From positions 11,408,001-11,472,000 of the forward strand of contig OZ024756.1 of the NCBI GenBank assembly GCA_964016885.1: DNA of 64,000 nt. The letters run 5' to 3'. Of the stretch, positions 9,791-43,658 are shown in pieces. Numbering within the stretch: the first letter of the stretch is position 1; each line of letters starts with the position of its first letter. The notes under the pieces were generated by a model. That model was not told where the DNA came from. It worked only from the letters and a program-made list of their open reading frames with translations, and ran no database searches. This DNA comes from Eledone cirrhosa. Taxonomy: Eukaryota. The position numbers were made by a program, and so were the translations under genes.

Positions 9791-9996
9791 ATAGGAACGA
9801 GTAGGACCCCGACGGCTGAGCTCAAGCCGTTTCGGCGGCTAATTCTGAACTAATTCAGTCCAGAATTAGCCGTCGAAACGGCTTGAGCTCAGCCGTCGGG
9901 GTCCTACTCGTTCCTATTACCCACTCTACTACCCTAAGTATTGAGTACTTTGGTGCGTTATGGTCCACCTGGTTCCTTACCACATTTCCTCCGTTA
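9791..9996 (+). mobile_element. Fold-back Penelope-like end (family A) with hammerhead 3' half
   Basis: Inverted arms about 9791-9847 and 9860-9916 plus an 80-bp tail; GAAA-CGGCT..AGCCG-TC-gggg; embedded in (TA)n. Confidence 0.7.
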
Positions 9997-10140
9997 TATA
10001 TATATATATATATATATATGAATATGTATATATATATATATACATTTGTGTATATATATATATATGTATATGTATATATATATATATATATATATATATA
10101 TATATATATATATAGATTTGTGTGTGTGTGTATATATATA

Positions 10141-10910
10141 AGCAATATTACATGGCAGTGAGACATGGGCATTGTGTGCAGAGGATATACACAGACTGGA
10201 GAGGAACGAAGCTTCCATGCTCCGTTGGATGTGTAATAGTAATATACGTAAACGGCAAAACATAAATGAACTAAGTGAGAAATTAGGAATAAGAGGGATC
10301 AGATGCTGTTTACTTGAGAGAAGACTACGTTGGTATGGTCACGTGATGCGCATGAAAGATGACAGCTGTATAAAAAAGTGCAGGGCGATCAAAATAGACA
10401 GTAGCTACGGTGTAGGTAGACCCAGAAAAACCTGGGACGACTTGATAAATTCCAACCTCACACATTTACACCTCTCCAAGACAATGTCACTGGACCGAGA
10501 TCTTTGGTGCTATGCAGTAATACAGAAGACCCGCTTTGTCTATGTACAAAGTGAAACCTACAGTCAGTGGGCACCTCTTAACCAAATATACACCCCCGTC
10601 CCACTACCCCTACCCACACCCCCATCAACACCACCCCTTTCTCTGTAAAGTTATATTGGTACCACAACATCCAGTCCGAAATAAATGATGTTGTGTAGGT
10701 GTCACGACAACAAAACACACAGTCCACACTGTATTGTGGCCGTGTAGGTAACACGGTAAAAACCTCCCAGTCCACACTGTAAACGTGGTTGGTGTTAGGA
10801 AGGGCAGGCAGTCCTGTATGAGCAAGACAACCAATCTTGCCTCACGTGGGACAATTCCCGTCTAAACCCATACTAGCGTGGAAGATAGACATTAAACGAT
10901 GATGATGATA
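10141..10910 (+). mobile_element. RTE LINE 3' fragment (same family as 2850-4340)
   Basis: [17 protein letters not shown]...RRLRWYGHVMRM...GRPRKTW, the same 3' UTR and a (GAT)n tail. Confidence 0.9.
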
Positions 10911-10940
10911 CACATTTGTGTGTGTATATATATATATATA

Positions 10941-11527
10941 CAGTGGGTCTTCGATATACGGTAGTTCTTTATCCGGTAAATTCACAGATACGGTGTTGGG
11001 TAATTACTACCATCAATTCTATTTACGGTAAAAAAAAATCAGCAGTAAAGTGGCTCAAGACGTCAAGAAAAACGTCAAGATTTACCAAGAAATGTATGAA
11101 GCCAAAAGAAACACCGCCAAACAGTCCTCCATCTACTCTTTCTTCAAGCCAGTCACACCTGCCAACCGTGCTACAGCTGGCCCTTCAACATCCACTGCAG
11201 TCAACGAGTTTGTTGGTTTTGAGCCTCCCATATCGCCCTCATCCTCCCCTGCCAACTCAGCCCAAGATGAGCAAGGACTGAAACCCATACTGTCCCTTAG
11301 CCTCGGGAGGGACAAATGAAAATGCACATCATCTGATGGACCACGCGGCATGTGTAAGGTACAGTAAATAAAAAAAAAACGTTATTTCTTTTCTGTAGGG
11401 ATGATTTTTTCGATGTGCTGGAACGCATCTCTATCTATTTCATGTTATAATGGGTTCTTTATACGGTAATTCGATATACGGTAAGGGTTTCAGGAATGCA
11501 TATATACCGTATATCGAGGACTCACTG
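10941..11527 (+). mobile_element. Tigger/pogo-type internally deleted DNA transposon
   Basis: TIRs cagtgggtcttcgatatacg / cgtatatcgaggactcactg with TA flanks; residual C-terminal peptide YQEMYEAKRNTAKQSSIYSFFKP. Confidence 0.85.
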
Positions 11528-11764
11528 TATATATATATATATATACACATTTGTGTGTGTATATATATATATACATATATTTGTGTGTGTGTGTGTGTAT
11601 ATATATATATATATATATATATATACATTTGTGTGTGTGTGTATATATATATATATATACATATATTTGTGTGTGTGTATATATATATATATATACATAC
11701 ATTTGTGTGTGTGTGTATATGTATATATATACATATATATGTGTGTGTGTGTGTGTATGAATAT

Positions 11765-12030
11765 AATCATCTTCATCGTTTTTACATCCAATTTTCCACT
11801 CTTGCATGGGTCAGACAGGTCCTTCTCAGGGCATCTCTCCACTCATCACATTCCTTCATCATCTCCTGTGCAACAATTTAAAGTCAGCTCTTGCAACTTC
11901 TGCCCAGTTCTTCATTGGTCTACCTCTACAGCAGCTGTCTTCCTGGCATTTCTTCACCCAGCAATCATCATCCATACATATCACATATTCATACTAAAGT
12001 AGACTTCTCTCTCTCTCCTGCACACCATCT
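11765..12030 (-). mobile_element. RTE LINE 3' fragment
   Basis: Similar to 19-290 (ttggcatttcttcacccagc-atcatcatccat). Confidence 0.7.
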
Positions 12031-12329
12031 CGGATTCCTCTTAAACCCAGAACCTCTTAAACCCTCGGCACCTGTTGGGTTGGGTTTCGCTTCAATTTTT
12101 TAATTATAATTTTATAATTTCTCAGTCATTTAATTTAATAACCAGGTGGTTGCTTAGTTGTTGATTGCTAAAACTCTTTCATCACACATTATGTGACCTC
12201 CTCAGTGATTACTATTGTTGTTGCTTTCTGTCTCTTCTTTGTTCTGTTTAACACCATCATGTTGACCAGTTGTTTAGCAACTATTTTGTCGTCAAGCATT
12301 TACCAGACAACATAATTGAATTTACAATG

Positions 12330-40743: not shown

Positions 40744-41072
40744 TTAATATCTGGATTTACTCCTCTATACTCTTATAATACACTTTATCAATCTTTAACA
40801 CATTCTTCACAGTATATTTGTTGAAACATGTGTAAGACAAATATAAATTTCTTGAGACTTCCTGGATTATTGAAATGTTGTGTGTATTTACAATAACCTG
40901 GAATTGTTTACCCAATGTTTTAATTCTTGACTCCATATGGATTACATCTTGGATGAATTTCTTCTATTTACTGATTGTTGGACCACATTGAGCTTGACGT
41001 TTCTTGGCATAACATTACCAACTTGATCGTTCAACCAATTACCCTTGTTGTGTGTGTGTGTACACATACACA

Positions 41073-41315
41073 ACAGGACAACCCGTCTAACCCATGCTAG
41101 CATGGAAAATGGACGTAAACATCCAGTGCACACTGTAAAGTGGTCATGTAAAAACACGGCAAAAAGCACCCAGCACACACTGTAAATGTGGTTGGCGCTA
41201 GGAAGGGCATCCAGCCGTAGAATACCAGCCAGAAAGAGTCCTATATGAGTGAGACACGGTTGCCTGACCCGTCTAACCGATGCTAGCATGGAAGATGGAC
41301 ATTAGATGATGATGA
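41073..41315 (+). mobile_element. RTE/SINE 3'-tail fragments
   Basis: acccgtctaacccatgctagcatggaa...ggaagggcatccagccgtaga...(gat)n. Confidence 0.65.
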
Positions 41316-41491
41316 TATATATATATATATACACATACACACATATAACGTGTCTGCAGCACAGAACGTTTGATTGATGAAAAGAAATTGACATTATACA
41401 TAGTCTGAGGCAGATCAGCATTTAAGGAAACCATTATTGTAATCAACAGAATACATTTGCAAACAACCCAGAAGAACGACAGATGAGATAA

Positions 41492-41690
41492 TAATAATAA
41501 TAATTGTTTCTACTTTTGGCACTTGGCCAGCAATTACCCAGTGCATTACTGGTACTTTATTTTATCGACCCCGTAAGGATGAAAGGCAAAGTTAACCTTG
41601 GCGGGATTTGAACTCAGACTGTAAAGGGACGTAACTATGCTGGAAAACATGGCGTCCGACCCTCTACCGATACTGCCAATCCACCGCCCT
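41492..41690 (-). mobile_element. SINE family 2, full length
   Basis: Minus strand aggggcggtggatTGGCAGTATCGG...GAGTTCAAATCC...ctttgcctttcatccttacggggtcgataaaataaagtaccagt...(att)n tail. Confidence 0.85.
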
Positions 41691-41734
41691 TAGATAATAA
41701 TATGACATCACAAACGTTGCTCTGAGTTCCTAAT

Positions 41735-43220
41735 TTTCCTTCTCTCTTCCCTTCCCTCCCTCTCTCTCTTTATCTCTCCCCTCTGTCTCTCTCTCTCTTC
41801 CCGCCCTCTCTTCCCTTCTCTCCCTCTCTCTCTTCCCGCCCTCTCTTCCCTTCTCTCCCTCTCTCTCTTCCCGCCCTCTCTTCCCTTCTCTCCCTCTCTT
41901 CCCTTCCTTCCCTCTCTCTTCCCTCACCCCTCTCTCTCCCCCTCTCTCTCTTACCCTCCCCCTCTCTCTCTTACCCTCCCCCTCTCTCTCTTACCCTCCC
42001 CCTCTCTCTCTTACCATCCCCCTCTCTCTCTTACCCTTCCCTCTCCCTCTCTCACCCTTCCCCTCTCTCTTACCATTCATTCCCCCTCTCTCTCTTCCCT
42101 TCGCTCTTTCTTCCCCCCCCTCTCTCCCGTCCCTCTCCCTATTCCCCCTCTCTTCCCTTCCCTCTCTCCCCTTCCCTCTCTCCCCCTCCCTTCCCGTCCC
42201 TCTCTCCTCCGTCTCCCTCTCCTTCCTGTCTTACTCTCTCTATTTCTGACGCCCACCCTGCTGTCTAATCCTCCCTCATTTTAATTCACTCCTCTCATTC
42301 ACCTTCCAAACTTCCCACTTTACCCCCCCCCCCCCCCTCATCTATAGCATCAAGTCTAACATGGAGTGCCATACCTACTGTTAAGTCACTCTATTGATCT
42401 GTTGTGATCAAAACCTCTGCTGAAAAAAATAGTAAGACATTGAACTGTTGAAGAACTAAACTCTGCCTTTTGTTTTCATTGTCCAACACACACACACACA
42501 CACACACTCACACTCACACTCACACACTCACTCACACTCACACACACACACACACTCACACTCAGACACACACACACACACACACACACTCAGACACACA
42601 CACACACGAGTCCCAAGTTCAATGGAGGATAACCACATTAAGGTACTCAATATGTTAGTAGAGTGTAAACATGTTTAATATAGAAATGGCTTCTACAGGA
42701 CTAGAATTGTTTCATTGAAAAGAAATCATCAGGTTTTCCTGATGATTTCTTTTGAATGAAACAGTTATCACATTCACCCCATCCCCCCCTCTCTCCCCCT
42801 CTCTCTTCCTCTCTCTCCCCCCTCTCTCTTCCTCTCTCTTCCTCTCTCTCCCCCTCTCTCTTCCTCTCTCTCCCCCTCTCTCTTCCTCTCTCTCCCCCCT
42901 CTCTCTTCCTCTCTCTCCCCCTCTCTCTTCCTCTCTCTCCCTCTCTCTTCCTCTCTCTTCCTCTCTCTCCCCCCCCTCCTCTCCCTTCCTCTCTCTCTCC
43001 CCCCTCTCTCTTCCTCTCTCTTCCTCTCTCTCCCCCTCTCTCTTCCTCTCTCTCCCCTCTCTCACCCCCCCCTCTCTTCCTCTCTCCCTCCCCCCTCTCT
43101 CTTCCTCTCTCTCCCTTCTCTCTTCCTCCCCCCTCTCTTCACCTCTCTCCCCATCTTCCCCCTCTCTCTTCCCCCCCTCTTCCTATCTCCCCCCCTCTCC
43201 CCATCTTTCTCTTCCCTTCC
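41735..43220. repeat. Polypyrimidine (CT-rich) tracts at 41735-42240 and 42780-43220, plus (CA)n
   Basis: Seen directly. Confidence 0.9.
42675..42767. mobile_element. Family B fold-back fragment
   Basis: ctgatgatttc...gaaaca on both strands around the loop aggttttcct. Confidence 0.6.
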
Positions 43221-43450
43221 GAGCACGCCTAACCCTTAACCTACGCAGAAAACCGAAAGCTGCAATGGCTAGCACCCTTCCGTTCACTGAGCTCGTGCGA
43301 TCGAGGTTACCCTATATAGTAGACAGGACCCCCTGGCCGCGCTGCATCCCCCGCAATCGTCGCTAATCCCCCAAGGACGATCCACCGGCCACGGGGGATT
43401 AGCTACGATCGCGGTGGCTTTTCCCTATATATATATATATATATATATAT

Positions 43451-43658
43451 ATAGGAACCAGTAAGACCCCGACAGCTGAGCTCAAGCCGTTTCGACGGCT
43501 AATTCTGGACTAAATTTTAGTCCAGAATTAGCCGTCGAAATGGCTTGAGCTCAGCTGTCGGGGTCTTACTGGTTCCTAATACCCACTCTACTACCTCAAG
43601 TATTGAGTACTTTGGTGCGTTATGGTCCACCTGGTTCCTTACCACATTTCCTTCGTTA
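43451..43658 (+). mobile_element. Fold-back family A copy
   Basis: Arms centred near 43515, the same tail, flanked by TA repeats. Confidence 0.75.

Follow-up and report, generated by a model that had tools for sequence, protein, structure and literature searches.

The stretch of Eledone cirrhosa DNA analysed here (contig OZ024756.1, positions 11,408,001 to 11,472,000; 64,000 nt, hereafter the window) contains 4 copies of a short palindromic element, family A, and a BLAST search of the whole window with copy 1 as the query found no further ones. All 4 copies share one layout, in which an inverted arm is followed by a direct arm, a single-copy tail, and then (TA)n (Table 1). The tail measures 79 nt in each copy and is present at one end only, and the palindromes formed by the arms measure 127, 102, 118, and 129 nt in copies 1 to 4, respectively. 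The outer end of the inverted arm is ATAGGAA in 4 of 4 copies, the right arm of copy 4 ends in TTCCTAA, and (TA)n is found at 7 of the 8 ends; the left run accompanies 3 copies and is missing at copy 3, where a second, significant fold-back occupies its place (z = −7.5; 0 of 200 shuffles). The centres of the 4 palindromes are all different, with turn positions clustered within about 10 nt and a spacer of 0 to 1 nt in 3 copies; copy 2 has a 6-nt loop. A sequence-only reading of this DNA had stated that the loops differ between copies and that the arms stop at one base, which our comparison bears out, but it had placed the turn just 5′ of GAAA, and the turn actually lies about 20 nt upstream of that motif in copy 1 (axis at 9854) and 12 nt upstream in copy 2. 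Because the tail folds were not significant (z = −1.55 to 0.45), we treat the ACTC...GAGT motif of the tail as a sequence landmark and not as a demonstrated hairpin.

In the right arm of copy 1, GAAA (9875–9878) is followed by a 6-pair stem III with a palindromic GAGCTC loop, a GTC triplet (9895–9897), and GGGGTC. This order of motifs suggests that the right arm of family A carries a type I hammerhead ribozyme's 3′ half, with predicted cleavage in copy 1 after position 9897. GAAA, stem III, and the NUH triplet were found, with 21 of 24 stem cells paired across the 4 copies, and the CTGANGA box expected 5′ of stem II is lacking in all of them. Both points agree with the sequence-only reading, whose hammerhead interpretation gains further support from 2 sibling families, C and D, that keep complete cores. 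Minimal type I hammerheads with a palindromic loop III have been described in the pseudo-long terminal repeats (pLTRs) of metazoan Penelope-like elements (PLEs) (Cervera and De la Pena 2014, PMC4209133), and the same study notes paired motifs on opposite strands, 100 to 700 bp apart. Family A resembles them in C11.1 before GAAA, the palindromic loop III, and a long helix II, and differs from them in lacking CUGANGA and in its longer stem III (6 pairs).

Self-comparison of the window for local palindromes revealed 3 sibling families, B, C, and D, with the same layout of inverted arm, direct arm, tail with T(A/G)TNGAGT(A/G)C, and then (TA)n. All 8 palindromes of families A to D carry the tail on exactly one side, and the spacer is 0 to 1 nt in 6 of 8 symmetric centres, with a 4-nt loop in family B copy 2 (B2). 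The distance from the arm end to the GAGT motif is 25, 22, 27, and 24 nt in family A, B1, family C, and the short D end, respectively, and 15 nt for the longer end of D1 (for B2, whose inverted arm is short, it was placed by homology); from the predicted cleavage site to the arm end it is 20 nt in both family A copy 1 and B1. A strict type I descriptor found 3 cores in the window (both C arms and family D at 51920) compared to 0 in 40 block-wise dinucleotide shuffles. Family B has CTGATGA and GAAA but fails this descriptor, and its three-way-junction fold is not significant (z = −0.52). The family A tail aligns with the family B tail (0 of 2000 and 5 of 2000 shuffles were as good), and it showed no significant similarity to the C or D tails (716 to 920 of 2000 shuffles). 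The turn lies 5′ of GAAA by about 20 nt in family A; B turns at stem I or the core, and C and D turn 8 nt and about 80 nt, respectively, on the 5′ side of the core. Since families B, C, and D turn elsewhere, stem II is not a general turning point, and only family A turns there. The inverted arms of D1 and D2 stop inward at the same GGATAGT (2477–2495 and 44105–44115), which suggests that the RNA 5′ end is fixed there or that the two descend from one palindromic ancestor. Two family D copies are split by later insertions starting CTAGCAGA (52013–52414 and 43750–43990), which are possibly Helitron-like, judging from resemblance; the former has a relative at 4374–4806.

The arms are more alike within a family A copy than between copies. 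Inside copies 1 to 4 they differ at 1, 2, 3, and 2 positions per 47 nt (mean 2.0), compared to a mean of 5.8 per 47 nt between arms of different copies (24 pairs; range 1–11); with the variable 7-mer left out, the values are 1.5 and 2.7. This comparison, which the sequence-only reading had put forward as a check, supports its proposal that the inversion is regenerated at insertion. The tails differ pairwise at 2 to 7 of 79 to 80 positions. The 3 pairs of mirrored variants that it had quoted are present in copies 1, 3, and 4, but they are not copy-specific as it had held. We aligned 4 of 21 sequencing runs to copy 1 (22,872 contigs in X1, 610 in X4, 3 in X5, and 26,734 reads in X19; these counts are not copy numbers), and the results below are drawn from the best 40 of 241 variants, 12 of 21 indels, 15 of 70 joints, and 20 of 570 loose ends. 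Alternative letters at 9798, 9799, 9804, 9904, 9909, and 9891 make up about 10–44% of contig depth in X1 (9799 G>A 32% and G>C 21%; 9804 G>A 44% and G>T 10%; 9891 A>T 40%). The variants are thus common family-wide alleles, for which "subfamily-specific" is the fitting term. Copy 2 is not mirrored throughout: its arms disagree at 2 of 7 positions of the 7-mer, which favours two templates only weakly because one of the 2 sites is a CpG change.

Family A is clearly abundant genome-wide, and the window holds 4 copies in 64 kb. Depth over the left arm in X19, a run of restriction-site-associated DNA (RAD) reads, was nearly unreduced into the TA flank (4143 to 4013; 1109 to 1039), a count that is blind to arms running into a tail, which would map elsewhere. 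From this continuity, the ATAGGAA end is fixed outside the window too, and a subfamily with a different variable segment also stops at that base, with (AT)n next to it (87 contigs, 663 reads). Heaps of X19 read ends at 9844 and 9864 were rejected as a RAD cut artefact, both positions being AATT sites. Relative to copy 1, the best 12 of 21 indels include at least 4 distinct centre deletions, and the best 15 of 70 joints include low-depth ones that begin the right arm at 9871, 9875, 9898, and 9905; joints ending at 9910–9914 were not taken as evidence, since the variable 7-mer may have broken the alignment there. In two low-depth junction types the right arm opens directly past the GTC triplet, at 9898 (3 contigs with 2 nt of ambiguity in one type, and perfect mirrors parted by a single T in the other). 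These hint at templates cut by the predicted ribozyme, though later deletion may also account for them.

Un-inverted family A copies with an imperfect hairpin 5′ of GAAA also exist. Five X4 contigs and 2 X5 contigs, the latter from another organism, extend 73–127 letters upstream of 9850–9853 with sequence in common, and nothing in X5 aligns to the left arm. In both organisms the 30 upstream letters displayed hold CGGCTATTT, complementary to AAATAGCCG of the right arm, which supports the pre-existing hairpin that the sequence-only reading had supposed at the turn. Another upstream type, found in X19 (702 and 983 reads from what may be few loci), matches the right arm imperfectly in inverted orientation, judged by eye. 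The hairpin upstream of GAAA could itself be an older, decayed inversion. Within the window the upstream motif of the longer copies matched 3 times where 1.7 are expected, which amounts to no independent match. Exact-pattern scans of metagenome, viral, and genome contigs gave 0 matches.

Family A is most likely a very abundant new example of the known Penelope-like insertion with an inverted pLTR plus tail, and its stubs are likely truncated pLTR ends of a Penelope-like retrotransposon; we infer this membership from the layout and the siblings. Among the traits of endonuclease-positive PLEs, we found an inverted 5′-truncated pLTR beside a direct copy (4 of 4 copies), a tail at one end, and an AT-rich or microsatellite target. 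As for a type I hammerhead in the pLTR, family A shows a putative 3′ half only, and complete cores occur in C and D. Inverted 5′-truncated PLE copies with a tail of 30–40 bp at one end and (TA)n targeting have been reported by Craig et al. (2021, PMC8557442), who attribute tandem and inverted structures to undefined features of the transposition cycle, and palindromes at the inverted junction, with self-priming as the proposed cause, by Arkhipova et al. (2013, PMC3846280). As in the pLTRs of Adineta vaga Pen2a, Pen2, and Pen3a and of Drosophila virilis Penelope (PMC3846280, PMC8557442, PMC2377424), a 5′-truncated inverted copy stands head-to-head with a direct copy in family A, with a junction palindrome, a one-sided tail, and an AT-rich or (TA)n target. 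Unlike these elements, family A has no open reading frame (ORF) between the repeats, a total length of about 200 nt, a turn confined to about 10 nt, and a very high copy number. The Naiad clade, which has a (TA)n target, an N-terminal endonuclease, and no canonical hammerhead (PMC8557442), fits in its target, but the hammerhead remnant speaks against it. Penelope-like families have been recently active in Octopus vulgaris (PMC13282606, the available part of which does not mention palindromes). A literature search that reached few subscription papers returned no description of family A and no account of PLE inversions by two-ended priming.

Non-LTR retrozymes (bioRxiv 10.64898/2026.07.22.740005) are, like family A, short, non-coding, related to PLEs, and equipped with a type I hammerhead; they are, however, tandem direct repeats with intact ribozymes, whereas family A units are dispersed and inverted with an incomplete core. 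A miniature inverted-repeat transposable element (MITE) or foldback DNA transposon does not fit an inverted repeat that ends 79 nt before the 3′ end, and target-site duplications are unreadable within the (TA)n flanks. One sense frame of the family A monomer is open in 4 of 4 copies, yet there is no protein match, and a coding role was rejected because synonymous changes account for 9 of 19 variants in this frame compared to 9 and 5 in the other frames.

For the directly observed anatomy, fixed outer end, differing centres, arm similarity, and sibling families, we favour a mechanism in which two target-primed cDNAs are begun at both tail ends, stopped at stem II, and joined head-to-head, and we give this account an even chance of being right. 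It draws on Frangieh et al. (2024, PMC11167929), in which a PLE protein acts on both target strands in vitro, cutting and extending each, reverse transcription begins at two internal sites bounding the tail, and a dimer is predicted. The element of that study, Poseidon of Anolis carolinensis, has, like family A, two fixed boundaries around a tail downstream of the pLTR hammerhead and an AT-rich target; the work maps reverse transcriptase (RT) starts and, in the sections available, does not account for inverted copies. Unlike Poseidon, family A has its first boundary 20 nt after the predicted cleavage site. If the in vitro result is taken at face value, the ATAGGAA end most simply corresponds to the upstream RT start and the tail end to the downstream start, and the fixed arm end is probably a second start site rather than a stop. 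A GIY-YIG/RT enzyme would nick both strands of (TA)n, and reverse transcription would begin internally at two fixed sites, near 9996 with the tail included and at 9917 with the tail left out, each by TA microhomology as modelled on PMC11167929. The upstream start would be primed off the other nicked strand through ATA microhomology. Copying would proceed in both cDNAs toward the 5′ side of the RNA; in family A it would cease close to the tip of the long putative stem II hairpin that lies upstream of GAAA, short of CUGANGA. Joining of their 3′ ends with an overlap of 0–3 nt would leave a nearly loop-less centre particular to each copy, and mirrored alleles would be expected if both cDNAs were templated by RNA of the same source element. 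Twin priming of L1 is comparable in that a further cDNA, target-primed at an internal site, leaves a 5′ inversion with a microhomology join; there, the inverted and direct parts are free of overlap and the internal site varies. Family A differs in that its parts overlap fully and its internal site is fixed.

The sequence-only reading had instead proposed a snap-back, in which the nascent cDNA folds at the stem II hairpin and copies itself to a fixed stop or cut site; for a Penelope-like pLTR, this would be a stop or an endonuclease cut some 25 nt ahead of GAGT. The closer likeness of arms within copies is compatible with this, and so are the tail side in 8 of 8 palindromes, the clustering of the 4 family A centres at the imperfect hairpin already present in longer copies, the loop of copy 2, and the second fold-back of copy 3 at TTCCTAT; self-priming (PMC3846280) and endonuclease resolution of the tail (PMC8557442) have both been proposed for PLEs. 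Two-ended priming fits better because solo tail-less copies of families B and D end at the family arm end with no partner arm to fold back from; an un-inverted tailed copy exists in family D as well. In D1 the inverted arm outreaches the direct arm by about 85 nt on the upstream side, which a simple snap-back cannot copy. Since a strand folding on itself must leave a loop of 3 nt or more, the spacers of 0–1 nt in most centres also disfavour a snap-back (p ~ 0.006 over 8 centres, calculated for chance complementarity and ignoring pre-existing hairpins and later correction). In addition, the natural 5′ strand and loop are lost in copies 1, 3, and 4, families B, C, and D turn away from stem II, and the tail boundaries are RT starts in vitro (PMC11167929). 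The hairpin part of the earlier proposal is supported, and the snap-back to a fixed stop is possible but unlikely.

Several observations weigh against two-ended priming at a Penelope-like hammerhead remnant. Stem III shows no compensatory change among the 4 family A copies, Rfam detected no hammerhead in the window at gathering or E-value thresholds and none for families A, B, and D (its 4 matches on the whole window are all a tRNA-like short interspersed nuclear element, SINE), and CTGANGA was not seen in the 30 displayed upstream letters of the longer copies. No RT or GIY-YIG ORF is tied to family A: among 24 ORFs scanned in the window, 3 match APE or RT domains (5709–7785), not adjacent to any copy, and none has GIY-YIG. 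The tail measures 79 nt compared to 30–40 nt in published PLEs. The short spacers are weak evidence within family A alone (3 of 4, p = 0.06), the loops of copy 2 and B2 suit a snap-back, and the outer hairpin of copy 3 suggests a free 3′ end at TTCCTAT. Independent choice of two starts should also yield two-tailed and tail-less palindromes, which does not match 8 one-sided tails. The B2 inverted arm falls short of the family end, and the D1 end lies about 9 nt past the D2 end. Finally, the solo copies and the long left arm come from families B and D, not A, and solo and asymmetric copies could be later deletions.

Joining of two cDNAs might also have its turn set by an RNA 5′ end, at the initiator-like TTAGTC/TCAGTC (9855–9860) instead of stem II, the arms being run-off copies of transcripts started in the pLTR. 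YYANWYY does lie at the turn of copies 1 and 4, but it occurs at 1.2% of positions; TATTTAAATA stands about 29 nt before the turn in one upstream type, but the second type has no TATA-like run. The common inner end of D1 and D2 lies at a CACT motif, like the initiator of Pen2a_Av (PMC3846280), and Penelope has an internal promoter (PMC2377424), although the D. virilis start site is upstream of the hammerhead (PMC4209133, PMC2377424). We regard this variant as improbable. A further view holds that palindrome plus tail is itself a non-autonomous unit (MITE-, foldback-, or Helitron2-like) multiplied from a few palindromic masters, with inherited mirroring and centres that decay later. Variants that are family-wide rather than private, the shared inner stop of the D1 and D2 left arms, and the upstream TTCG of longer copies, which could be a decayed older mirror of CGAA, are in keeping with such masters. 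We consider them quite improbable, however, given true ends without terminal inverted repeats and with a one-sided tail, a layout around a hammerhead core common to 4 sequence families, the un-inverted and solo copies, and the many different centres seen among the best 12 of 21 indels and 15 of 70 joints. That the mirroring and the perfected centres arose after insertion, by gene conversion between the arms or by template switching during replication, is very improbable: the outer hairpin of copy 3 copies a 3-G form confined to the left arm of that copy, in keeping with a later switch at this place, but the fixed end and tail are left unexplained, and homogenisation is not ongoing because the 1–3 unshared arm differences per 47 nt are similar to the tail divergence (2–7 per 79).

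Beside the family A copies, a unique 187-nt stretch (18030–18216) with a 50-codon open frame lies between a TA run and the outer hairpin of copy 3; it may have been inserted together with that copy, and its frame had no Pfam match above the cut-off. A GC-rich structured element, single copy in the window, lies in the TA run left of copy 4 (43313–43427; DNA fold z = −4.55, 0 of 200 shuffles). More local inverted duplications without a recognised hammerhead (35828–35954, 56117–56373, 57148–57255, 25895–26032, 16008–16546, and 16990–17324) are possibly stubs of other families or template-switch scars. The window further contains a tRNA-derived 325-nt SINE in 9 copies of 90–97% identity, 4 of which pass the Rfam tRNA cut-off; a broken remnant resembling a long interspersed nuclear element, with APE endonuclease and RT fragments (5709–7785; Pfam, below cut-off); 2 copies of an element with a weak DDE_3 transposase match (980–2267 and 33684–34574; 92–94% identity); and a tandem array of a 42-nt unit (58016–64000; at least 136 copies, about 95% identity).

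Table 1. Coordinates of family A, its siblings, and the SINE copies in the window
Feature	Position	Strand	Description
Family A copy 1	9791–9996	+	palindrome and tail
Copy 1 inverted (left) arm	9791–9853	-	tail-less; ATAGGAA outer end abuts (TA)n
Copy 1 direct (right) arm	9855–9917	+	putative stem II 3′ strand, GAAA, stem III, GTC, putative stem I 3′ strand
Variable 7-mer of copy 1 right arm	9904–9910
Copy 1 single-copy tail	9918–9996	+	79 nt; ACTC...TATTGAGTAC motif 9939–9948; (TA)n afterwards
Family A copy 2	16793–16973	-	palindrome 16973–16872, 6-nt spacer; tail 16871–16793
Family A copy 3	18226–18422	+	palindrome 18226–18343, 1-nt spacer; tail 18344–18422
Second fold-back, outer end of copy 3	18216–18245		12-bp stem, 6-nt loop; replaces left (TA)n
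Family A copy 4	43451–43658	+	palindrome 43451–43579, 1-nt spacer; tail 43580–43658
Family B copy 1 (B1)	36966–37165	+	nearest relative of A; palindrome to 37094, CTGATGA 37037, GAAA 37056, A-homologous tail
Family B copy 2 (B2)	42617–42766	-	turn 4 nt upstream of CTGATGA; short inverted arm misses family end
Family B solo tail-less copy	22597–22638	-	same end base as B1 inverted arm; no partner arm
Family C	23032–23352	+	perfect 224-nt palindrome; complete minimal type I hammerhead per arm; tail
Family D copy 1 (D1)	2313–2665	+	inverted arm about 85 nt further upstream than direct arm; tail
Family D copy 2 (D2)	43691–44360	+	axis 44115; left arm broken by later insertion at about 43750–43990; tail
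Family D un-inverted copy	51855–52512	+	complete hammerhead, CTGATGA 51920; tail displaced by 400-nt insertion
Family D solo tail-less copy	32571–32690	-	partner arm and tail motif both absent from the nearest 1.5 kb
SINE copies	9118–9443, 17687–18008, 31605–31927, 36013–36337, 37287–37613, 37977–38302, 52808–53124, 54397–54712, 56744–57049

Palindromic stubs of this kind can be mistaken for MITEs or microRNA hairpins, and Rfam gave many sub-threshold microRNA matches. The value of family A is as material for an open mechanistic question and not as a new kind of element. With its very high copy number, arms marked by alleles, one fixed outer end, and centres that cluster, the family would allow snap-back and two-ended priming to be separated by counting copies in one assembly. 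We tentatively suggest, as a possibility short of likely, that an enzyme dimer uses both target strands as primers, at two fixed sites of the RNA, and that stem II of family A ends both cDNAs, in which case a palindrome minus the catalytic box would be the commonest product and the stubs would be a genome-wide fossil record. If true, two-ended priming with a stop at stem II would explain the inverted-repeat-plus-tail structure of PLEs by one rule.

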